A DNA stretch of 45,210 nucleotides. Origin: a virus. Its lineage: Duplodnaviria; Heunggongvirae; Uroviricota; Caudoviricetes. A program made the position numbers and the translations under genes. How positions within the stretch are numbered: the first letter of the stretch is position 1; each line of letters starts with the position of its first letter. A model generated the notes under the pieces. It was not told the DNA's origin, searched no databases, and saw only the letters and a list, made by a program, of their open reading frames with translations. This document shows positions 835-45,210 of this stretch, piece by piece. The DNA is taken from positions 1 to 45,210 of the IMG/VR virus record IMGVR_UViG_2711768053_000020. One strand, written 5' to 3'.

Positions 835-1046
835 AATGGGGTGTCAGGTCTTTATCGGGACACTGATACGGGGAAAGTTACAATACTGAGGCTGGTTCAC
901 GCTCAGAGCGTCAAAATTGTCCGTCACAGACTCGTCGCATCTGCACTTAATCCATATGACACGGATTGGACAGATTATATCCGATCCCGAACCACGCGTC
1001 TGACTGCACCTGCCGCATCATTTCACAGTGGTGTTTGATAAGGCTT

Positions 1047-1122
1047 GAGCCGTGTGAGCTGGAAACTCTCACGCACGGTTCTTAGAGGGGGCGTTGAAGG
1101 TAACTTCGGTGCCCTACTCGAC
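1047..1122 (+). mobile_element. group II intron 3' remnant (domain V plus domain VI-like hairpin with bulged A)
   Basis: GAGCCGTGTGAG...CTCACGCACGGTTC matches the conserved domain V consensus (GAGCCGUAUG...ACGUACGGUUC) at almost all invariant positions. It is followed by a GC-rich hairpin with an unpaired A near its 3' side. No intact reverse-transcriptase ORF lies upstream. Confidence 0.5.
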
Positions 1123-6940: not shown

Positions 6941-7355
6941 GCCATTCAATATCTGGCGCACCGGAAGTATCAACCAGTTCCAGTGCGTCCAGATAATCCA
7001 GCCATAAATTATATTGTTCCAGCTCGTCACCTTTCAGACGACCAATAGCAGCTTTGCCAGGCCACTGATGGGTATTGATGTAGGTATTGACTTCTGAAAC
7101 CAAAGATATTTTTTTCATTTCAGCCGTCAACACCTCATCCTCTTTTGAAGGTGGTGGGGAATTAATCCATACTGGCCGTCCTGAACTGTCAGCGCCAATT
7201 TCTTTCCCTTCTGGATGCAGACCAAGAAATTGCTCATATGTTTCTCTGGTAATTTCAATAACATCATCAGGAAGCGTTCCCGCATCCTCATATTCTGGAA
7301 ACAATTCTTGCAGATAAAAACTTTTACTCCCGGGTGAAAAGAATACTGAGTTCAT
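6912..7355 (-). CDS. tail fibre assembly protein (expressed copy, U-like)
   Basis: 147 aa directly downstream of the tail-fibre gene; C-terminal ...DYLDALELVDTSGAPDIEWPTPP parallels the other Tfa copy. Confidence 0.8.
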   Translation of the reverse strand: MNSVFFSPGSKSFYLQELFPEYEDAGTLPDDVIEITRETYEQFLGLHPEGKEIGADSSGRPVWINSPPPSKEDEVLTAEMKKISLVSEVNTYINTHQWPGKAAIGRLKGDELEQYNLWLDYLDALELVDTSGAPDIEWPTPPAVQAR

Positions 7356-7357
7356 TA

Positions 7358-8101
7358 TTACCGTCCAATGATTAACGCTGAGACGCTGGTATCTGAAGGA
7401 AAGGCTGCATTCAGTGGTTTGTCGACTTTGAACACAATCGTATTATTCCCCCTGACAGCGGCAAAAGAACAAACCGCAGTCGCGTATGAACCTGTAATAT
7501 TACTGGATACACCACCATAAGCTGTTGTTGATACCAGAGGGACAACGCCCAGCACCTTATTAGGAAATACAAAGGGCAATGTGGCTGTGGCAATATAAGA
7601 CTTATTAGAGCCTGTGATGGCATAAGCATTATCAGTCATTCCATTCATCGCCACCGGGCCGCTTATACTTACAGTAACCATCTGAATGATTAGCCCGTCA
7701 GGTTGACGAATCACAAAATTTCCATTGCCACCAGTAACCGTCCAGAAAGACATATCAGGGATTTGGTTTTCCCCGTTGCCCACATTCCGTTTTGCCGCTT
7801 CTCCCAAACCAAGGTTTTCGAGAGCTGTTTTCACCGTGCCATCCGATTTGATATCGCCAAACGGATTCTTGCGGCTTAACAGCAGCGCACGAAGCGCGGT
7901 AAGCAGCTGGTCATGCCGCCCCTTCTCCAGGCTGGCACCGGATGCCTCCACAACGCTGCAAAGCTCCTCCTGCAACATGTCAAAGTAGTCATCATCCAGA
8001 TCGGTGGCAGGCGTGCCGGTCTGGGGGTTACCACGGGTAAAACCGTTCTTACCCGCGCCGAACTTATCCTTCTGCGCGGTTTTCGTGTCTATACGATGCA
8101 T
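7358..8101 (-). CDS. tail fibre protein (constant N-terminus plus currently expressed variable C-terminus)
   Basis: 247 aa ending the tail operon, immediately after the baseplate genes; crossover site embedded at residues about 94-101. Confidence 0.8.
7799..7824. repeat. invertase crossover site, copy 2 (inside tail-fibre gene)
   Basis: TTCTCCCAAACCAAGGTTTTCGAGAG in inverted orientation relative to 5830-5855; falls at codons about 94-101 (LGLGE) of the tail-fibre gene. Confidence 0.6.
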
Positions 8102-34945: not shown

Positions 34946-35572
34946 ATGGAAACGGTTGGTCAGCGTATAAAAGCTCTGAGAAGAGTTACCGGAACGTCCC
35001 AGAAAGAATTGGGTAAATTTTGTGGAGTAAGTGACGTTGCTGTGGGGTACTGGGAGAAAGACATCAATACCCCTGGTGGGGAGGCACTTTCGAAATTAGC
35101 GAAGTTCTTCAATACGTCAATAGATTACATTCTTTATGGTGCTGAGTTTGAAGGCAAACTCGTCACAAACATGCGCAGAGTTCCTGTAATATCGTGGGTT
35201 CAGGCTGGGCAGTTTACTGAGTGCAGGGCAGCAGAAGTGTTTAGTGAAGTGGACAAGTGGGTAGATACATCATTAAAGATTGGTGATAACTCATTTGCAT
35301 TAGAGGTTAAAGGTGACTCCATGACTAACCCTAATGGCCTCCCAACAATACCAGAAGGCGCAACAGTGATTGTAGATCCAGATGCAGAACCTCGTCATGG
35401 AAAAATAGTCATCGCTCGACTTGATGGAACAAACGAAGCTACAGTAAAAAAATTAGTCATCGATGGCCCTCAAAAGTTTTTAGTGCCATTAAATCCTCGG
35501 TATCCCAACATCCCTATCAATGGTAATTGCCTTATCATTGGTGTAGTCAAAGGAGTTCAATACGAACTCTAA
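34946..35572 (+). CDS. cI: CI-type prophage repressor (HTH plus S24 LexA-like peptidase domain)
   Basis: 208 aa; N-terminal HTH (…QKELGKFCGVSDVAVGYWEKD…) and C-terminal S24 motifs including the catalytic Ser in VKGDSMT and the Lys in TVKKLVIDG. Confidence 0.9.
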   Translation: METVGQRIKALRRVTGTSQKELGKFCGVSDVAVGYWEKDINTPGGEALSKLAKFFNTSIDYILYGAEFEGKLVTNMRRVPVISWVQAGQFTECRAAEVFSEVDKWVDTSLKIGDNSFALEVKGDSMTNPNGLPTIPEGATVIVDPDAEPRHGKIVIARLDGTNEATVKKLVIDGPQKFLVPLNPRYPNIPINGNCLIIGVVKGVQYEL

Positions 35573-35819: not shown

Positions 35820-36026
35820 ATGCACAAAACAGAACCCAAAATCGTCGCGCCTGGCTACACAGATGAGGAAATTTATGAGTGGATGACAAAGAAGCTGGCA
35901 GCTATAAACCAGCTTCGTGAAGTGCTGTCTTATCGACAGGAAACAATAGACTCCTTAAAAAAACTGGATCAGGAAATCACGGTTTTATCACAGGATGTTA
36001 CTTTAGATATTGTGCAGACAAATTAG
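35820..36026 (+). CDS. small hypothetical protein (68 aa)
   Basis: ATG at 35820 preceded by GAGGAG at good spacing; downstream of cI and of CTAAG-containing repeats. Confidence 0.4.
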   Translation: MHKTEPKIVAPGYTDEEIYEWMTKKLAAINQLREVLSYRQETIDSLKKLDQEITVLSQDVTLDIVQTN

Positions 36027-36432
36027 GATCCCATTCATTTTCGTCAAAATCATCAAAGTGATGAATTTGTGATCTCCAGTCTCGATAATCTAAAAATTTC
36101 TGGGCGGTTACGCTTATTTTATCAAGTGTGAGTTCATCCTGAATTGAAAGAAGAAGTTCATCAAATTTCATCTCATTAATCTGTTTTGGCATCCAGTGAT
36201 GCTTCATCAGAATAAGGTGAACCAGAGCCTTTTTCCCATTCAACTGATTATAGGGAGTGCCGAATTTCTTCCGGTGCTCATGTAAGACAAGGTCCAAAAG
36301 AGTAAGTAATGTTGCCCTTGATTCAACTTTGCTTATTTCGACTGATGACACTACCCCACTGATTTCAATGCCCCGATACTTTCCAACATTTTCACAGTGG
36401 GATTTGTACAGCGTATAGATATTACCGGACAT
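35998..36432 (-). CDS. hypothetical protein (144 aa), AT-rich moron between immunity region and xis/int
   Basis: ATG preceded by AAGGAAAAG; no family recognised. Confidence 0.55.
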   Translation of the reverse strand: MSGNIYTLYKSHCENVGKYRGIEISGVVSSVEISKVESRATLLTLLDLVLHEHRKKFGTPYNQLNGKKALVHLILMKHHWMPKQINEMKFDELLLSIQDELTLDKISVTAQKFLDYRDWRSQIHHFDDFDENEWDPNLSAQYLK

Positions 36433-36989: not shown

Positions 36990-37208
36990 GTGGAGAAACA
37001 TATGCTGAACCTCGATTGTGTTCCTATCTCAACTTATTGCAAAGAAACTGGCGAAACTACTGAAGCTATAAACAAACGTGTACAGCGCGGTGTTTGGCGT
37101 GAAGGCGTTCAGGTTTTAAAGGTTGAAGGCGTTAAGGAGAGGTGGATTGATCTTAGTGAGGTTGCAAAATGGGCCAGACAAAACTGCTCAAACTACCGCG
37201 CGGCGTAA
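36990..37208 (+). CDS. xis: excisionase (Xis-like)
   Basis: 72-aa basic protein immediately upstream of and overlapping the integrase gene. Confidence 0.65.
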   Translation: MEKHMLNLDCVPISTYCKETGETTEAINKRVQRGVWREGVQVLKVEGVKERWIDLSEVAKWARQNCSNYRAA

Positions 37209-38344
37209 CAATCAGGAAACACCGCCAGGACGAAACGATCAATATAACTTTCACCTACAAAGGAGTTAAATGCCGTGAGCCTCTTTCCAATCTGGAAGTA
37301 ACACCAAAGAACATTAAATACGCTGAGCGTACACTCGGCGAAATTCATAATAAGATCGAAAGGGGAACATTCATTTATGCGGAATATTTTCCCCGTTCTG
37401 CTCGTTTGAAAATTTTTGGTAATGCTGCCGCAGGCAAAACGGTAAAAATGTATCTGGACGAATATCTTGAAATCTGCGAAACGAGAAAACTTTCTCCCTC
37501 TACGATTGGTGGTTATAAAAAATGCCGTAGTGCGTTAGCCTCACTTCACATTTGTCCTGCAAGTGAATTAACACCAGCAATCCTGAAAGCGTGGATTCAA
37601 AATCAGAAAACGACCTTAAAAACAATTCGCAACCAGTTATCTTTCCTGCGGTCAGCACTTGATGAAGCCGTAACCGATGGGGTACTTCAAATTAACCCCG
37701 TATCGTTAGTAACTGCTTCACGCTACCAAAGTGATAAGTCAGAAGCAGAAAGCAACTACGTGGTTGATCCGCTATCACCAGCAGAAGTTGATGCATTACT
37801 AGCAGCTGCTGGAAATAAACAATGGGAGAATCTGTTCCGGTTCGCCATACATACAGGCCTGCGTAGTTCTGAATTATGTGCCCTTAGATGGCGTGATATC
37901 GACTTTGTTGGAAAAACTGCCCATGTCCAGAGCGCAAGTGTTGTCGGTGTTATCAAAGGAACAAAGACAAAAGCCGGTACTCGTAAAGTTGAACTGACAG
38001 AAGAGGCAATGTTGGCGCTGATAAATCAGAAGCCATTTACATTCATGAAGGATGCTACTGTCTTTGAAGATCCAAAGACAAACAAACCGTGGGCCAGCGC
38101 CGATGCGATAAGGAAAAAAGCGTGGATACCAACCTTACGTAAAGCAGGTATCCGGTACCGTAACCCATATCAGACCAGGCATACTTTCGCCACCAGCCAT
38201 ATCAGCCGTGGTGCGAACCTGTTCTGGCTTGCAGGCCAGATGGGCCATAAGGGACCAGAAATGCTATTTCGTCACTATGGCAGTTACCTTGCTGCATATG
38301 ACGGACATACCGCTAAAAATACTAATGATACAAAACAGGCATGA
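37169..38344 (+). CDS. int: tyrosine integrase (lambda-type site-specific recombinase)
   Basis: 391 aa; C-terminal catalytic region with R...HxxR...Y pattern (NPYQTRHTFATSHISRGANLFWLAGQMGHKGPEMLFRHYGSY). Confidence 0.9.
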   Translation: MGQTKLLKLPRGVTIRKHRQDETINITFTYKGVKCREPLSNLEVTPKNIKYAERTLGEIHNKIERGTFIYAEYFPRSARLKIFGNAAAGKTVKMYLDEYLEICETRKLSPSTIGGYKKCRSALASLHICPASELTPAILKAWIQNQKTTLKTIRNQLSFLRSALDEAVTDGVLQINPVSLVTASRYQSDKSEAESNYVVDPLSPAEVDALLAAAGNKQWENLFRFAIHTGLRSSELCALRWRDIDFVGKTAHVQSASVVGVIKGTKTKAGTRKVELTEEAMLALINQKPFTFMKDATVFEDPKTNKPWASADAIRKKAWIPTLRKAGIRYRNPYQTRHTFATSHISRGANLFWLAGQMGHKGPEMLFRHYGSYLAAYDGHTAKNTNDTKQA

Positions 38345-38639
38345 TGCTGCCCGAACAAATAGCCACTGAAACCTGATAAAAAGTTATTTGTGATGTGGTT
38401 ATGTTCGTCATATCCACATCATACATACTTAAACATAAGGCACTTTTTACCTTGCAAAAATTCGAACCAAGCATATATGTTATAGGTGAACTTGGTACTC
38501 AGGCAGCTGTCCTAGTACTAGGAACACGCGGGAAATCTTGGAGCCAGTACGTAGATTATGGTAAAATCCCGCGCCCCGTTTTGCGGGGAGCAATAAATGC
38601 CTCAAAAGGATACATTGGGGGGACTGAAAGGAGGTCTTT

Positions 38640-38888
38640 ATGTCAGAACTAGTCATGAAGATGTTTGGGCTGAATGATTTGGTCAAAGGCGGACAAGCCA
38701 TGGCCGATCGTTTGAACAAATCTGGTGTTAAAAACATCAAGGTCGTAGGGCGTGGTGCAGTTATTGTAGACCCATCTACTGACCCAGAAAAAATCACTCA
38801 GCTTAGGAAAGCAGCTAGAAAATTCGTCGAGCAGGATGCAAAAGCTGTTGCAGCCGCTAAAGCTAACTCAATGGACAATGACGACTAA
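38640..38888 (+). CDS. hypothetical small protein (82 aa)
   Basis: ATG preceded by AAGGAGGT; first gene of a two-gene AT-rich cassette. Confidence 0.5.
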   Translation: MSELVMKMFGLNDLVKGGQAMADRLNKSGVKNIKVVGRGAVIVDPSTDPEKITQLRKAARKFVEQDAKAVAAAKANSMDNDD

Positions 38889-38891
38889 CAA

Positions 38892-39710
38892 ATGTTTGCA
38901 TTGCTGATCATTCCACTTTTAGTAAGTGGATCCTTACTGGTTACATCGCCCCATAACATCAAATTATTCTATCGACTCCACCGTTACGACGGCCAGCTTC
39001 TCTATATGAAGGTGGCCACGTACGGTGTGTACTCGTTCATTGTTGCAGTCGTGCTGGCGTATGCAACCAAGTACTTTATACCAAGCCTTACACTGGTCAC
39101 ATGGGTATCACATCTTATTGATGGTAGTGCAGACCCTAAAGAAAACAGGATAACATCATGGCTCATCCTGCTATCAGTGGCGACTTGTGGAGTTGCTTTT
39201 ATTTGGTTGCAGATATGCAAATTTCGTATGTTTGTGGCAGCAAAAACTATTAGTTCTGCATCCAATAATGCAATTTCTATCAATTTCGCAAAGCAACTAA
39301 TCAGGCTTAATGAGTTGGAAAAACTGTTGTCTGATGGCTCACTTGGTCAGCTATTCTTTGATTCAGCGACTACAAACAGACCGGTACTGATAAGCCTGAA
39401 ATGCCGCAAAGTATATGTCGGAACAGTTAACATGATTAGTGAGCCAAACGAAAAACAAGGCCCTAACCTTGAAATTTCTATTAGCCCAATCATGTCTGGT
39501 TACAGGGACAAGGACACACTAAGGGTCCTGTTTTCAAATGATTACAACGATCTTGATGGAGTTGATACCAGTATCATATTTCCATTAAGTGAGGTTTCGC
39601 ATGCTTCTTGGTTCAATATGGATATACATGAAAAAGTAGACAATAACCGAGAGAAGAAACCAGAAACAAACCGCAAGAAAAAACGTAAATATGGCAGGAC
39701 TACGAATTGA
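38892..39710 (+). CDS. hypothetical membrane protein (272 aa)
   Basis: Starts 4 nt after the upstream stop; N-terminal half with several hydrophobic helices, C-terminal half soluble and basic at the end. Confidence 0.55.
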   Translation: MFALLIIPLLVSGSLLVTSPHNIKLFYRLHRYDGQLLYMKVATYGVYSFIVAVVLAYATKYFIPSLTLVTWVSHLIDGSADPKENRITSWLILLSVATCGVAFIWLQICKFRMFVAAKTISSASNNAISINFAKQLIRLNELEKLLSDGSLGQLFFDSATTNRPVLISLKCRKVYVGTVNMISEPNEKQGPNLEISISPIMSGYRDKDTLRVLFSNDYNDLDGVDTSIIFPLSEVSHASWFNMDIHEKVDNNREKKPETNRKKKRKYGRTTN

Positions 39711-39784: not shown

Positions 39785-39820
39785 ATTCGGACACGGGTTC
39801 AACTCCCGCCAGCTCCACCA
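39785..39820 (+). other. ssrA: tmRNA (ssrA) / tRNA-like 3'-end fragment ending in CCA; probable att remnant
   Basis: ATTCGGACACGGGTTCAACTCCCGCCAGCTCCACCA has T-arm, acceptor 3' strand and CCA, and from memory matches the 3' terminus of enterobacterial ssrA with one mismatch; no 5' portion of the RNA gene is present upstream. Confidence 0.55.
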
Positions 39821-39985
39821 CTTTTTAGTTGTTTGAAGTTCAATGAAGTCTACTAAGCCCACACAGCACAAGCTCTGCGGGCTTTTTTACGTCTATTGTC
39901 GTCCAGTGAGAATTGCTGAGAACTACGAGTTATGGCACCCTGAATGGGACCCATTAAGAAGGGTCCAAAAACCGAGGGTCCCAAA

Positions 39986-41215
39986 ATGGCAAAAATCGCT
40001 AAGAAGCTCACTGACACTGAAATCAAAAGCACCAAGCCAGCCGATAAAGAAATCAACTTGTTTGACGGTGATGGTCTGATTCTACGAATCGCTCCTTTGG
40101 CGAAAGGAGGCAAGAAAAATTGGTATTTCAGGTATGCAGTACCAGTGAGCAAGAAAAGAACCAAAATGAGCCTTGGGACATATCCTCACCTTACCCTTGC
40201 AAGAGCCAGAGCCTTACGTGATGAATATCTCTCCTTTCTGGCAAATGGTGTTGATCCCCAAATCCATAACAACGATAAGGCGAAGGCATTAAAGAGTGCT
40301 ACTGAGCACACTCTCCAAGCCGTAGCGCGGAAATGGTTAGATGAGAAGGTAAAGACATCAGGTATCTCACAAGACCATGCAGCAGACATCTGGCGCAGCT
40401 TAGAGAGAAATGTCTTTCCCGGTCTGGGTAATGTCCCTATCAATGAGATCCGACCTAAGCTCTTAAAACAACACCTTGATCCTATTGAGCAACGAGGCGT
40501 ATTGGAAACTCTACGCCGTATCATTTCACGTCTGAATGAAATCTTCCGGTGGGCAGCTACTGAAGAACTTATTGAGTTCAACCCGGCTGACAACCTTGGT
40601 CAAAGATTCAGTAAACCAAAAAAGCAAAATATGCCTGCCCTTCCCCCAAGCGAATTGCCAAGGTTTATGGAATCTTTGACGAATGCGTCAATCCGGTTGG
40701 AAACACGTATGCTAATTGAATGGCAATTGTTGACATGGGTTCGTCCGGGTGAAGCCGTTCGCGCAAGGTGGTCTGATATTGATACAACCAACAGCATTTG
40801 GAACATTCCTGCTGATTTCATGAAAATGAAAAAGCTTCACAAAGTTCCTTTGAGTAAAGAAGCTTTGCGCATCCTTGAATTAATGAAATCAATAAGTGGG
40901 CATAGAGAATGGGTTTTCCCCAGCATAAAAGCGCCTCTTAATCATATGCATGAACAAACAGCCAACGCAGCTATCATCCGAATGGGGTTCGGAGGCGAGC
41001 TTGTAGCTCACGGTATGCGTTCTATTGCACGAACAGCGGCAGAGGAGTCTGGTAAATTCAGAGCTGAAGTTCTTGAGGCAGCGCTTGCCCACTCGAAAAA
41101 AGATGAAATTATCGCAGCATACAATCGTGCAGAATATCTGATAGAGCGACAGAGTTTGATGCAATGGTGGAGTGATTACGTTCAAGCTCAAAGATCAAAT
41201 GCTCTGGTAGCCTAA
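39986..41215 (+). CDS. P4-type tyrosine integrase
   Basis: N-terminal MAKIAKKLTDTEIKSTKPADKEINLFDGDGLILRIAP...NWYFRY is the characteristic P4-integrase N-terminus; C-terminal ...AHGMRSIARTAAEESG...AALAHSKKDEIIAAYNRAEY catalytic region; directly downstream of the tmRNA-like fragment. Confidence 0.9.
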   Translation: MAKIAKKLTDTEIKSTKPADKEINLFDGDGLILRIAPLAKGGKKNWYFRYAVPVSKKRTKMSLGTYPHLTLARARALRDEYLSFLANGVDPQIHNNDKAKALKSATEHTLQAVARKWLDEKVKTSGISQDHAADIWRSLERNVFPGLGNVPINEIRPKLLKQHLDPIEQRGVLETLRRIISRLNEIFRWAATEELIEFNPADNLGQRFSKPKKQNMPALPPSELPRFMESLTNASIRLETRMLIEWQLLTWVRPGEAVRARWSDIDTTNSIWNIPADFMKMKKLHKVPLSKEALRILELMKSISGHREWVFPSIKAPLNHMHEQTANAAIIRMGFGGELVAHGMRSIARTAAEESGKFRAEVLEAALAHSKKDEIIAAYNRAEYLIERQSLMQWWSDYVQAQRSNALVA

Positions 41216-41253
41216 GTATCAGAATAGCTAATATAATCCTGAAGGTAAAGAAA

Positions 41254-41670
41254 ATGGAAACCCTATTCAAAGTTTTTGAAAAATTTAGTTCCAGACCACT
41301 TTTTTTTATTTTTTTCGGACTCTCACTTTGTGAATTTTTTCAGAAACAATCTGTTCTGATGAATCCATCAGCAGATAACATCGCGAAATTATTCGCAGCC
41401 ATGATATTAGTTGTTTTTTTTACTTGGGGATTTGAATGGCTAATCTTCAAGTTCAATGTAAACCTTGAACCTCATGATCAAGGCGATATTGGACCAACAA
41501 TTGGAACGGCTACTTTAGCTGTATACTTAGTTTATGCCTTTCACTTTCTCAGTGAAAATCCTGAAGCATTAAATTTAAAGTTATTAACTAACTCTGGCTT
41601 TATATACAGCACAACTCTATTATTATTCTCATTAGAATGCATGAAGCTTAGAAGACTTAAACAAAAATAA
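41254..41670 (+). CDS. hypothetical small membrane protein (138 aa)
   Basis: AT-rich ORF with about four hydrophobic segments, immediately after the integrase. Confidence 0.5.
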   Translation: METLFKVFEKFSSRPLFFIFFGLSLCEFFQKQSVLMNPSADNIAKLFAAMILVVFFTWGFEWLIFKFNVNLEPHDQGDIGPTIGTATLAVYLVYAFHFLSENPEALNLKLLTNSGFIYSTTLLLFSLECMKLRRLKQK

Positions 41671-41741
41671 ACAACATCATTGTGATGATAAATATAAAAT
41701 AGGCATGGCGAAAAAAAATCACCACGCCTAAAATATAATAA

Positions 41742-43508
41742 TTATGGTAGCATCATTGATACATAATCCACACCAATCCTTGAGCTATACTGAGACGCTA
41801 TAGCCTGATATCTTTCTGCATAACCAGTTCTCAGTTGAGATTTAAGTTTGAGTCGGACAGGAACATTTTGCACGTTGCCATCCATATTACTTAAAAACAC
41901 GGCAGAAATAATATTTTTTTCTTCGCCATCAACTGTTGTTCCATGATTCAACACCACCATATAATCAACAACAGGAAGCGTTTTATCCCCTTCGAAAATA
42001 GAGAGATATTTTCTTTGATTTTTATGCATTACATATATATATTTCGAATGTTCAGCAAATGGCAATGCTTTACTCTGACTGGCGTTAAAAAGCTCCAGAA
42101 CTTTAATGAGCCTGTGCGGACTTAATCTTACATGGTGAGGGTCGTTACCCTGAGTAGGAACCAAATCACATGCCGCAGATACACATAAATACCATTTGTT
42201 CGACTCTGTATCAAAGAAAATAGTGCCAGTAGAAATATGACCATCTTCAAAATTCTTTGAAGACAAATTCATATTTAAAGCATGATACATTTCGTGATAA
42301 GTATCATTATTTGATGGCAGATCCATTTTTGAAGAGCAATATTGGAGCAATGCAGCAACTCCGCTGTTAGCGTATTCATTTGAATAGCTATCAAAAACAC
42401 TTTTGATAAATTCATCCAGCGTATTATTATTTTTAAGTCTTTGATAAAGCTCTTCTGATAAATTACCAAATACAAAGTCAATATTTCTACATCTAATATC
42501 AGGCGAGTCTGATTTTAATATCTCATTTAACCACGCAGCTTGACCGTAATGATCGTTAGCCAAATGATTTACAAAAGATAAAGCCTCAGCTTCGATTGCA
42601 TTCTGAATTTCAGATTTTATTAACTGATAATAAGATGGTTTCCATTCAATGAGAGAATCATTGAGAGTTTGCCAAATCCTATCTCCATCGTTTTCATGAT
42701 CATCTTGAACCTTATGAAATAGGGAGACAAAGATATTACCACATTGAATCCATTTTACTCCGCTTTCATCACCCCGAATGACATTGCCAGATGTGTTGCT
42801 AGAAATAATTGCATTTCTAGACACAGCATATTCTGCAATCATTTTTGCAATGAAGTTTTTATCCTTTTGATCCTCCAACACAGCATCATCATGTATTAAT
42901 CTTTTAATTCTTCTACAAGGCTTACTGTCTTTAATATAGGCTATTGTTTCATCTCTTGTGAGAGCTTTATTACCATTATCATTTAAGTTCGGTAATACAA
43001 CGTCTTCCCAATAACTTTGGACATCTTCATTATCGTAGTCAATGATCAAGCTGTTGATATCCAGAGCACCTTTGAGAGTCGATGATATCTGCATCCAAAC
43101 CGTTTCTAAATTCTCTCTAGTATATATTACAATCATATTTAAATGATCGGAGTCTTTCAAATCTTGTAATAGTTTAAGTGTTTTATCAGGTGCATTATTA
43201 TCAAGATGATAATCTACAATAATAAGATCTGATTTTCTAATCCGATCCACATCGAAATTAACAGAACCATTGTCAACATCACAAATCATATTTTTAGATT
43301 GAAAAAAGCTCTCAAGAGTAGCGGCTCGTTTAGATGAGTCAATTTTGTTGTAGTCTAAATCAACTTCGTTATTCAACGCCCTGATTGATTCAGAATACGT
43401 CAGAAAATCGTCATCAATCATGACAACGGAACGAATTGCATTTTCGCAGAAAGTTTTCTGGACAAGAGAATTATAATTTGCCACTGTCATATTAGAACTC
43501 CACTCCAT
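41742..43508 (-). CDS. receiver (REC)-like domain protein with unassigned C-terminal domain (588 aa)
   Basis: N-terminal region has REC hallmarks in order: acidic pair (VVMIDDDF), putative phospho-acceptor Asp (DLIIVDYHL), conserved Thr (MIVIYT); about 400 further residues unrecognised. Start overlaps the upstream kinase gene by 17 nt. Confidence 0.7.
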   Translation of the reverse strand: MEWSSNMTVANYNSLVQKTFCENAIRSVVMIDDDFLTYSESIRALNNEVDLDYNKIDSSKRAATLESFFQSKNMICDVDNGSVNFDVDRIRKSDLIIVDYHLDNNAPDKTLKLLQDLKDSDHLNMIVIYTRENLETVWMQISSTLKGALDINSLIIDYDNEDVQSYWEDVVLPNLNDNGNKALTRDETIAYIKDSKPCRRIKRLIHDDAVLEDQKDKNFIAKMIAEYAVSRNAIISSNTSGNVIRGDESGVKWIQCGNIFVSLFHKVQDDHENDGDRIWQTLNDSLIEWKPSYYQLIKSEIQNAIEAEALSFVNHLANDHYGQAAWLNEILKSDSPDIRCRNIDFVFGNLSEELYQRLKNNNTLDEFIKSVFDSYSNEYANSGVAALLQYCSSKMDLPSNNDTYHEMYHALNMNLSSKNFEDGHISTGTIFFDTESNKWYLCVSAACDLVPTQGNDPHHVRLSPHRLIKVLELFNASQSKALPFAEHSKYIYVMHKNQRKYLSIFEGDKTLPVVDYMVVLNHGTTVDGEEKNIISAVFLSNMDGNVQNVPVRLKLKSQLRTGYAERYQAIASQYSSRIGVDYVSMMLP

Positions 43509-45210
43509 TGAACTGGATCACAAAATTAGCGCCATCTTTTATTAAATAGTTATCGCCTTCATCAGGTTCTGAATACCATATTTTATGATGTGCAACAGCA
43601 AGGTTTTCTCGACATAGATACAGACCTACCCCATGTCCATTTGCTCTTTTGCTATAAAATAGTTCAAATAGTCGCGGGATATCATCGGTATCAATTGCCG
43701 GACCAGAATTTGCTATGATAACCAAAGAATTCACAAAACCAATCTTTATGAGCCTATTATTTGACAGACTGACCCAATACATTGCATTGTTGATAATATT
43801 AGTAAAAACAGGATAGATCCTTGATGGTATATCTGTTATTGCGATTTGCTTAAACTCTTCACTAAATTCAATAGTTATTCGTTGCCGTTCGAAACGCTCC
43901 CCAAAGAACTTCAGGACATAATCCATGATATTTTTTCCAGTTATTCTCTGCCTGGATTGATAACCTGATATTTTCAAAGGTGATAAGAAACGTATTTGTT
44001 GAGTAAGCGATCTGTGAGCATTTAACGCCAATGAAAAACCAGGGTGTTCTTTTACAGAAGTAGGAAGAGAGTTTAGTCCTCTGGTTACCATAGAATCCAT
44101 TTCTTCAAGTTCATGAGATATTATCTCAACACTAATACCTAACTGTGCAAGCGCGTTTAAACTTTTAGCTTTTTCTTCAAAATATGAGCGTTCTTCTTCA
44201 GATAATGAGAATGCTGAATCTAAGTTTATACCTTCAAATAATCTATCGAGACCTTTTATTATTGATTGATATTTGAAAGTTAGGGTATCAACTGACTCAA
44301 CATATAAACTATCGAGCAAATTAAACACATTTTCAATTTGTGAATCATTATCTATTGAATCAACAACTGATATAGTTTTAGCATAATAATCACTTCGATC
44401 AACCTTTATTTCATCGGCCCATTTTTTTAAAAGAGAATGTATCTTCTCCTCTATCGTGTTATTAAACTTAGTTAGTTTAGAATTAATAATACCTTGATTT
44501 TTTTCAAGGTGATTTTTCGCTGACAATGAAGGCTCAAGTTTATTTAATTCAGAATCAAGTTTATTAATTGCTAACTTCATTTGTAGAATATACGCAGAGA
44601 ACTCATTAAATTTATCTCTGTAGTCTCTATATTTCTCTTCATACATTCCAAGTTTTGGAGGTTTGATAGGCGTTTTAATTTCACTGCGCAACGCATCTAA
44701 GTTTGTAAGATCACTGTCTATAATTTTAAGATAGTTTAAATCTAACGAACCATCAGTTTTATCAAGCTTAGTTTTCAGCCTTTTAACAGCCTCCAAGGAA
44801 GCATCAAGAACTGGTGTCTGATTCTTCAAAGCTTCTGAAAAACTTTTTTGTGTTGATTTTCGAGCTTGTTGTTGAGCAGATTTTCTTAACTCTTTTTCAC
44901 GCTTAACTTGTTCTAAAAGCTCTTTACGGTCATCAGAACGTGAACCAAAAAATCTATCAGCAAGTTCAGTTAACAAATTAGATATAATAGTTTTCAGTTC
45001 TCTTGCAGCCTGGTTTCTTATGAATCCCTCTCTCCCCGACTTATCTTTCAGCTCTTTATTACTGGATTGAGTAATTCCAATATAACCAAAAATCCTTCTA
45101 TTAGACCAATAATATCGCCCTGCATTCCATGAACGTCTTTCTTCTATCTGGAAGAAATCATTATCTACTCGACCATAAGGTAATACTCTCAAGCTATCCC
45201 TAAAAATCAT
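43492..45210 (-). CDS. cytoplasmic histidine kinase-like protein (572 aa)
   Basis: C-terminal core with H-box (ISHELEEMDSMV), N-box (NIINNAMYW), G1 (ANSGPAIDTDD) and G2 (GHGVGLYLCRE); about 380-aa N-terminal region is coiled-coil-rich with no TM segment. ATG coincides with the last window base. Confidence 0.75.
   Translation of the reverse strand: MIFRDSLRVLPYGRVDNDFFQIEERRSWNAGRYYWSNRRIFGYIGITQSSNKELKDKSGREGFIRNQAARELKTIISNLLTELADRFFGSRSDDRKELLEQVKREKELRKSAQQQARKSTQKSFSEALKNQTPVLDASLEAVKRLKTKLDKTDGSLDLNYLKIIDSDLTNLDALRSEIKTPIKPPKLGMYEEKYRDYRDKFNEFSAYILQMKLAINKLDSELNKLEPSLSAKNHLEKNQGIINSKLTKFNNTIEEKIHSLLKKWADEIKVDRSDYYAKTISVVDSIDNDSQIENVFNLLDSLYVESVDTLTFKYQSIIKGLDRLFEGINLDSAFSLSEEERSYFEEKAKSLNALAQLGISVEIISHELEEMDSMVTRGLNSLPTSVKEHPGFSLALNAHRSLTQQIRFLSPLKISGYQSRQRITGKNIMDYVLKFFGERFERQRITIEFSEEFKQIAITDIPSRIYPVFTNIINNAMYWVSLSNNRLIKIGFVNSLVIIANSGPAIDTDDIPRLFELFYSKRANGHGVGLYLCRENLAVAHHKIWYSEPDEGDNYLIKDGANFVIQFNGVEF

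Follow-up and report, generated by a model that had tools for sequence, protein, structure and literature searches.

Among the described systems that come closest to the locus analyzed here, the Cap15 or 2TM-beta-barrel effectors of the cyclic oligonucleotide-based antiphage signalling system (CBASS) are membrane effectors with a small cytoplasmic beta-barrel. In the lambda pair RexA/RexB, a soluble protein of about 279 residues (RexA) is accompanied by a protein of about 144 residues with four transmembrane (TM) helices (RexB). A further point of reference is the locus between gpA and gpQ of phage P2, which was shown experimentally to be a hotspot of anti-phage systems (Rousset et al. 2022, PMC9122126). 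Our analysis concerns a cassette of two genes, one encoding a soluble protein of 82 residues (the small protein) and the other a membrane protein of 272 residues (the large protein). They lie in a stretch of 45,210 nucleotides of Caudoviricetes DNA (positions 1 to 45,210 of the IMG/VR virus record IMGVR_UViG_2711768053_000020), the whole of which is hereafter called the window. The pair is catalogued as P2-hotspot system #57, with 75 occurrences, in Table S5B of Rousset et al. 2022 (PMC9122126).

The results show that the pair is a real, ancient and self-contained two-gene operon, which behaves as mobile accessory cargo. As to its function, we tentatively favor, with somewhat less than even confidence, a self-contained, membrane-acting module for phage exclusion or abortive infection that would protect the lysogen from other phages; this defence role is inferred from genomic position and architecture. 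A toxin-antitoxin, exclusion or abortive-infection module had been suggested in the original prediction, which was made from the letters of the window. The suggestion is partly supported, and what supports it is the lack of homology to a transporter or housekeeping protein, the conservation of the pair, and the antiviral slots it occupies.

The pair as one unit and its genomic slots

Both open reading frames (ORFs) are located on the plus strand with the predicted lengths and spacing, i.e. they are separated by exactly 3 nucleotides (nt; TAA-caa-ATG). Given this gap and the absence of a Shine-Dalgarno sequence of its own, the large gene is probably translationally coupled to the small one. The DNA belongs to an Escherichia coli chromosome; its cassette region is 100% identical to that of strain CP55_Sichuan. 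Of 5,426 complete E. coli genomes, just 17 contain the cassette. It had been described as AT-rich, and it is moderately so, with a GC content of 0.422 compared to 0.512 in the prophage body. The proposed location between the phage integrase and an att remnant is borne out by the Pfam domains of the integrase and by the 3' end of ssrA downstream, which is found in a single exact copy in the window. Hence, the cassette is cargo of the interval between integrase gene and attachment site (int-att) of a lambdoid prophage integrated at ssrA. The sequence of the remnant recurs in the annotated ssrA of more than 1,000 E. coli genomes, and the Rfam match to transfer-messenger RNA is weak and partial. 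The same layout is found in the Cronobacter phage phiES15, in the order xis-int-small-large-attP, where the small gene is gp02 and the large gene gp01. A partial match to the small RNA (sRNA) IsrM (RF02763; 39744-39888, plus strand; 58.5 bits, where the gathering score is 376) overlaps the ssrA remnant and the hairpin that follows it, and probably reflects shared ssrA-att sequence, not a real IsrM gene.

The family of the large protein is widespread. A word-indexed search yields 160 clusters at 90% identity; at 50% identity there are at least 2,656 clusters with E <= 1e-3, 1,366 of them with E <= 1e-10. A genome scan with one genome per species provided 80 loci from Gamma-, Beta- and Alphaproteobacteria, Acidobacteria, Bacteroidota and Turneriella. 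For about 74 of these, the large gene is preceded on the same strand by an ORF of 59-134 residues, which stops 0-28 nt before it or runs into its start; the gap is 12 nt or less in 61 loci. According to a comparison of 83 small ORFs (76 from the scanned loci, and seven from the window and from phage or contig loci), 74 can be classified into three sequence groups with 44, 24 and six members, the first of which is a hidden Markov model family including the window protein. Profile-profile comparison weakly suggests a common hairpin-helix core between the groups (E = 1.6e-3 and 2.7e-4). The pairwise identities of large and small proteins are strongly correlated (r = 0.91, with none of 2,000 Mantel permutations as high; r = 0.83 within the main group), which argues that the two genes have been inherited together and have diverged together.

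No conserved third gene was observed next to the pair in the neighbourhoods examined. The nearest large ORFs at 68 loci are heterogeneous: they include IetA (twice), a retron reverse transcriptase (twice), integrases (four times) and many housekeeping genes. In view of these mixed neighbours and the lack of a third partner, we regard the pair as self-sufficient. In six of the 80 loci (L050, L055, L060, L076, L078 and L088, from Sodalis, Lautropia, Xenorhabdus, Photorhabdus, Arsenophonus and Pantoea), the large gene is truncated to 56-156 residues, and these look like pseudogenised copies; an intact small ORF persists in four of them (L050, L055, L060 and L076).

A small upstream gene that is tightly coupled to a larger one and strictly co-inherited with it is also the layout of type II toxin-antitoxin systems. 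The main rival explanation is therefore a toxin-antitoxin-like addiction module, in which a membrane toxin would be neutralised by the small protein and would stabilise the prophage or island without dedicated phage sensing. The self-contained nature of the pair, its scattered contexts, which are typical of such modules, and its position on or near a mobile element wherever such an element is identifiable are in agreement with this model. We nevertheless consider it rather unlikely, because the structural model of the small protein lacks the ribbon-helix-helix, helix-turn-helix or AbrB fold of DNA-binding antitoxins, neither protein matches a toxin-antitoxin family in Pfam or NCBIfam, and the pair is enriched in slots that collect anti-phage cargo. 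The model overlaps with a defence role, since many toxin-antitoxin modules are themselves defence systems.

The slots can be roughly classified into three types. The first is the lambdoid int-att interval, which is occupied in the window, in phiES15 and in one Klebsiella prophage. In the latter (locus L006), the pair is separated from the integrase by a gene of 225 residues (7285-7962) with a weak match to the PADLOC candidate PDC-S64 (E = 6.5e-7). The second slot lies between the replication gene gpA and the portal gene gpQ of P2-like prophages. Here the pair is the only cargo in Yersinia, E. coli TUM1881 and Tig228; the same placement is found in the Salmonella phages SEN4/5 and in the Klebsiella phage ST15-OXA48phi14.1, in which the pair precedes a bSEFIR (SEFIR/TIR) gene. 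The third slot, in Salmonella and Citrobacter, has an AlpA-like gene on one side and a P4-type integrase on the other and adjoins IetAS (E = 1e-269 and 3e-132). Other sites are integrase-linked islands of Vibrio and Serratia and a Providencia prophage.

Several hundred E. coli genomes possess an integrase 90-95% identical to that of the window. Three sister prophages (integrase 93-95% identical) were examined; all of them lack the cassette and carry other cargo in the int-att slot. In E. coli AF6 (L108, 5226-7939), this cargo is PD-Lambda-5, with a methyltransferase subunit (E = 2e-124) and an AAA ATPase. In E32 (L107, 2687-3875), the slot contains two uncharacterised genes, and in SF-468 (L109, 5165-7035) three genes, one with a STAS-like domain. 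A PADLOC scan of the cargo genes of E32 and SF-468 gave no match, and we list them as candidates for further defence systems.

The same observations bear on a role in the phage life cycle, for example in timing lysis, in anchoring phage DNA or RNA to the membrane, or in an immunity directed only against relatives of the carrier. The absence of the cassette from the sister prophages, a position that varies by phage type (int-att versus gpA-gpQ), the occurrence of the pair in non-phage islands and among chromosomal genes, and an orientation and promoter suited to independent expression make such a role highly doubtful, even though both families are represented in PHROGs, the pair is found in induced or isolated temperate phages (phiES15, SEN4/5, ST15-OXA48phi14.1, vB_Pae_U5/U6 and C5a), and some members possess a basic tail or an H-NS domain.

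Predicted architecture and candidate mechanism

The large protein had been characterized as a multi-pass membrane protein. Its membrane nature holds: hydropathy analysis (Kyte-Doolittle windows) reveals three TM segments at residues 1-19, about 41-62 and about 88-111, all within the first 115 residues or so. What does not hold is the picture of a plain multi-pass protein, since a soluble domain of about 150 residues follows. Positive charges after TM1 and TM3 predict an orientation with the N-terminus outside and the C-terminus inside. An AlphaFold2 model based on 53 homologs (mean predicted local distance difference test, pLDDT, 81) places helices over the TM region, followed by a helix at 150-161 and six strands across 165-240. 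In the predicted soluble part, an N-terminal helix leads into an antiparallel beta-sheet that is strongly bent and forms a small barrel, as in the Sm-like fold; according to this model, the protein is a three-TM anchor with an Sm-like domain and is not transporter-like.

Near-invariant or invariant motifs of the family are distributed over both parts. LHRYDGQLLYxK in the first cytoplasmic loop and W90 belong to the membrane region, whose invariant columns are L29, G34, L37, Y38, K40, G45 and W90; the barrel region carries the invariant RKVYVG, EPxE, PxxSGYRxK, NxY and SWF. The C-terminal tail is basic in the window protein, and general nucleic-acid binding through this tail was considered and rejected: a net charge of at least +4 in the last 30 residues is found in only 48 of 131 family members, many tails are acidic, and a single member possesses an H-NS C-terminal domain in place of the basic tail. 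The tail is thus a lineage-specific hint; the H-NS domain fits a cytoplasmic C-terminus and is otherwise a hint only.

The small protein is soluble, and no hydrophobic segment was seen in its hydropathy analysis. Its core motif is (K/R)VVGRGxVxVD, and that of its family is (K/R)VVGRGT-x-hydrophobic-x-D, followed by a long helix; the AlphaFold2 model (pLDDT 74) predicts a helix at 12-28, a beta-hairpin at 33-43 and a second helix at 49-79.

The original prediction recognised no family for either protein. This remains true for Pfam, NCBIfam and PADLOC, but not for PHROGs or for the catalogue that contains system #57. The large protein belongs to phrog_3630 (E = 2.1e-82, profile positions 1-269 of 274) and the small protein to phrog_35771 (E = 1.1e-45, positions 1-82 of 82), both annotated as 'unknown function'. 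In Pfam and NCBIfam, the large protein has no match and the small protein only sub-threshold noise; the families checked include LSM, Hfq, WYL, MS_channel, SieB and DUF2207, none of which exceeds its curated threshold, and 78 diverse members of the large family share no Pfam family. Among PDB sequences, the family profile found no match at E <= 10. Our literature search with accessions, PHROG identifiers, motifs and descriptors found no report testing the pair and no paper describing a three-TM anchor and an Sm-like barrel with a small partner. Homology to a transporter or housekeeping membrane protein, with a small ORF not conserved alongside, had been named beforehand as the outcome that would speak against a module; no such homology emerged, and the small ORF accompanies the large gene as described above.

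The mechanosensitive channel MscS consists of three TM helices and a beta domain, and the predicted layout of the large protein recalls it. A module for lysogenic conversion or membrane physiology is accordingly conceivable, for example a regulated channel or an envelope-stress factor gated or scaffolded by the Sm-like domain, loosely MscS-like; transporters and regulators flank many loci, and the family is very large and phylogenetically broad. Yet no match to MS_channel or any other Pfam family was obtained, the strain-level distribution in E. coli is patchy, the pair is located in phage cargo slots, and such channels are not characterized by an obligatory small partner. We therefore judge this explanation unlikely. 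Both this role and a life-cycle role are made less probable by the patchy distribution, by a slot that varies and by the presence of the pair outside phages.

Returning to an exclusion or abortive-infection module, the large protein would act as effector, with the small protein as its cytoplasmic regulator or sensor. In such a scheme, the lysogen would transcribe the operon from the conserved extended -10 element that the operon itself carries, and translational coupling would ensure that the two proteins are made together. The 272-residue protein is predicted to insert with its N-terminus out and to span the membrane three times, with the Sm-like barrel in the cytoplasm. The barrel may oligomerise, bind a ligand or nucleic acid, or both, and thereby gather the TM helices, as analogy to Sm, Hfq and WYL would suggest. 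The 82-residue partner could bind the barrel or the LHRYDGQ loop, either as an antitoxin-like inactivator or as a sensor of infection. Infection would then alter the interaction of the two proteins, and the membrane protein would permeabilise or depolarise the membrane or block genome entry. Oligomerisation, binding of the small protein, and permeabilisation or entry block are derived from the architecture and from the likeness to Sm, Hfq, WYL and TM-plus-barrel effectors.

A more specific version, which we think improbable, is that the cytoplasmic Sm/WYL-like barrels build a membrane-tethered Sm-like ring which senses entering phage nucleic acid or protein together with the 82-residue partner, and that rearrangement of this ring opens a pore of 18-21 helices or blocks genome entry. 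If true, both the sensor-effector principle and the family, with at least 2,600 clusters in several bacterial phyla, would be new.

In favor of an exclusion or abortive-infection module, the pair is real, conserved and coupled, is accessory cargo and sits in known antiviral slots; furthermore, a TM anchor with a small cytoplasmic beta-barrel, as predicted here, resembles the membrane effectors of defence systems. Several observations weigh against it. Neither protein matches any model of PADLOC-DB v2.0.0 at E <= 1, and the homologs from Klebsiella and Pseudomonas are likewise without a match. No known catalytic or pore motif is present in either protein. Cargo without a defence role, such as partition systems and toxins, is likewise found in the P2 hotspot (PMC9122126). 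The sequences of systems #57 and #43 are absent from the tables of cloned systems in Rousset et al. 2022, so that the pair was catalogued but left untested there (PMC9122126). In the table of the same study, Phobius calls TM1 a signal peptide, which would make the barrel periplasmic and renders the topology uncertain (PMC9122126). Moreover, a tyrosine integrase lies within 8 kb of only 19 of the 80 loci, many loci are situated among housekeeping genes without a defence neighbour, and the defence-island signal in the census of 68 neighbourhoods is only modest.

Should the pair be an anti-phage or exclusion system, a compact (1.1 kb) and very widespread family would be added to the defence repertoire. 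This would explain why P2-like and lambdoid prophages of E. coli, Klebsiella, Salmonella, Yersinia and Cronobacter carry it repeatedly, and would be relevant to the host range in phage therapy. As an addiction module or a membrane-physiology gene, the pair would be of modest interest; a large, unnamed family for which Pfam, NCBIfam and PADLOC are all blank would still deserve a name and an annotation.

Upstream region and other features of the window

The upstream regions of six orthologous loci were aligned (window, phiES15, Atlantibacter, Mangrovibacter, Scandinavium and Enterobacterales CwR94). At the protein level, these loci are about 80% identical; their flanks are largely unalignable, and the mean column identity of the flanking DNA is 65%. 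The extended -10-like element noted in the original prediction is present, and its pattern TGnTAnAAT (T, G, TA and AAT) is invariant in all six loci; since the flanking DNA has diverged, TGGTAAAAT is more than a chance match. A generic -35/-10 promoter scan of the window did not call it, because its -35 is weak (TGGAGC, three of six consensus positions). CCCGCGCCC, which follows TGGTAAAAT, the two hairpins of the 5' untranslated region (5'-UTR) and AAGGAGGTCTTTATG are invariant or retained across the six loci. The long invariant column runs of a non-coding block farther upstream, amid unalignable DNA, suggest a regulator-binding site or a second promoter; the block may be a distal promoter (TTGCAA / TATGTT) or an operator.

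The 5'-UTR hairpin of the original prediction was recovered as hairpin 1, close to or at the 5' end predicted for the mRNA; its stem is kept in the six loci, and its loops vary. A second hairpin can be added, with a 7-bp stem in which each pair is kept in four to six of the six sequences, through invariance or G-U changes only. A structured regulatory RNA was considered for the 5'-UTR and rejected: no Rfam family covers it, no compensatory double changes occur in either hairpin among the six sequences, and the stability of the whole-UTR fold is not unusual (z = -0.82). The hairpins are thus accepted as conserved features, but not as a riboregulator.

Table 1. Positions of the cassette, its upstream region and neighbouring features in the window
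Feature	Positions	Strand	Remarks
cI-like repressor	34946-35572		upstream of cassette
Excisionase gene	36990-37208		5' side of integrase
Tyrosine integrase of prophage	37169-38344	+	Pfam Arm-DNA-bind_2 and Phage_integrase; transcribed towards att
Conserved non-coding block (GCACTTTTTaCCTTGCAAAA ... TATGTTATAgGTGAACTTGG; GCACTTTTTnCCTTGCAAA ... CTATGTTATAAGTGAACTTG)	38440-38495	+	upstream of extended -10
Extended -10 element TGGTAAAAT (TGnTAnAAT)	38559-38567	+	read from sequence
5'-UTR hairpin 1	38571-38591	+	CGCCCCG-UUU-UGCGGGG; GC-rich stem, UUU loop; in minimum-free-energy fold
5'-UTR hairpin 2	38600-38620	+	CCUCAA ... UUGGGG; 7-bp stem
Shine-Dalgarno sequence AAGGAGGT	38628-38635	+	strong; 4 nt 5' of ATG; invariant in six loci
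Small gene	38640-38888	+	82 residues
Large gene	38892-39710	+	272 residues
N-terminal membrane region	38892-39224	+	TM1-TM3 and loop LHRYDGQLLYxK (residues 29-40)
Predicted cytoplasmic Sm/LSm/Hfq/WYL-like small beta-barrel	39339-39626	+	residues ~150-245
Basic C-terminal tail (REKKPETNRKKKRKYGRTTN)	39648-39707	+	lineage-specific
att remnant, ssrA 3' end (GGTTCAACTCCCGCCAGCTCCACCA)	39796-39820	+	marks prophage boundary
Terminator-like hairpin	39870-39884		3' of att remnant
P4-type integrase	39944-41215		second island
ORF of 138 residues	41254-41670	+	strongly hydrophobic; directly after P4-type integrase
Protein of 588 residues	41742-43508	-	Response_reg_2 (PF19192)
Protein of 572 residues	43492-45210	-	HEF_HK/HATPase_c, histidine-kinase-like

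Elsewhere in the window, Rfam matches the catalytic domain of a group II intron (RF00029) at 1045-1122 (plus strand; 53.6 bits, above the threshold of 40 for gathering, E = 7e-8); such an intron seems to have inserted close to the left end. A match to the STnc100-like sRNA (RF02076; 36543-36766, plus strand) reaches 42.5 bits, just below the gathering score of 47 (E = 4e-7). It is located in a gene-free, GC-richer gap of about 560 bp between a gene of the ECs1072 family (35998-36432, minus strand) and the excisionase gene; in CP55_Sichuan, the equivalent stretch contains different genes (yfdR and others). Directly after the att remnant, a second island of low GC content (0.32-0.36) spans 39944-45210. 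Its hydrophobic ORF of 138 residues yielded only a sub-threshold match to Na_H_Exchanger in the family search. The genes for the 588- and 572-residue proteins resemble a two-component pair, a type for which a role as conflict systems has been proposed; PADLOC matches neither protein at E <= 0.001, and a looser scan gives a weak match (0.0028) for the 588-residue protein only.

Comparison with known systems

The closest entry in the literature is P2-hotspot system #57, whose large protein is 48% identical (BLASTP E = 2e-82) and whose small protein is 38% identical (E = 9e-9) to the window proteins. Those copies are located at gpA-gpQ of P2-like prophages, whereas the window copy occupies a lambdoid int-att interval. 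System #43 of Table S5B is a divergent relative, with an hhalign probability of 99.2% for the large-protein profile; both systems are described only as hypothetical proteins with TM helices (PMC9122126).

The P2 hotspot is shared with Rst_2TM_1TM_TIR of the P2-like phage AC1, and TM proteins stand beside a TIR/SEFIR gene in ST15-OXA48phi14.1 as well. The AC1 sequence itself was not compared, and the TIR gene is absent from the window. That the pair is a component of the AC1 2TM-1TM-TIR system was rejected, because the pair is separable from the SEFIR gene, the two being found apart in E. coli; the intervening protein of 69 residues has no TM helix.

With lambda RexA/RexB, the pair shares a prophage location, presumed expression in the lysogen, the combination of one soluble and one membrane protein, and a candidate abortive-infection logic. 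In the window pair, however, the membrane protein is the larger one and bears a predicted cytoplasmic domain, and Pfam and PADLOC scans detected no sequence relationship. Nor was a relationship to MscS, as a unit of TM3 and beta domain, detected in structure or sequence.

The predicted barrel is set apart from Sm, LSm, Hfq and WYL proteins by the lack of a match to Pfam LSM, Hfq or WYL and by different conserved motifs (RKVYVG, SGYRDK). Among the matches listed, the Sm, Hfq and WYL structures are all soluble, whereas the domain in the window protein would be tethered to the membrane by three TM helices. In overall plan, the Cap15-type effectors offer a parallel: N-terminal TM helices and a C-terminal small beta-barrel, through which a signal could be sensed and oligomerisation within the membrane be driven. 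The pair differs from them in that no CBASS effector of PADLOC is matched and no cyclase gene is nearby in the window; furthermore, the barrel is lipocalin-like there and predicted to be Sm-like here, where an 82-residue partner accompanies it. While the listing in the P2 hotspot was already known, the domain combination of a three-helix anchor and an Sm-like barrel with an obligatory partner of about 80 residues is new.

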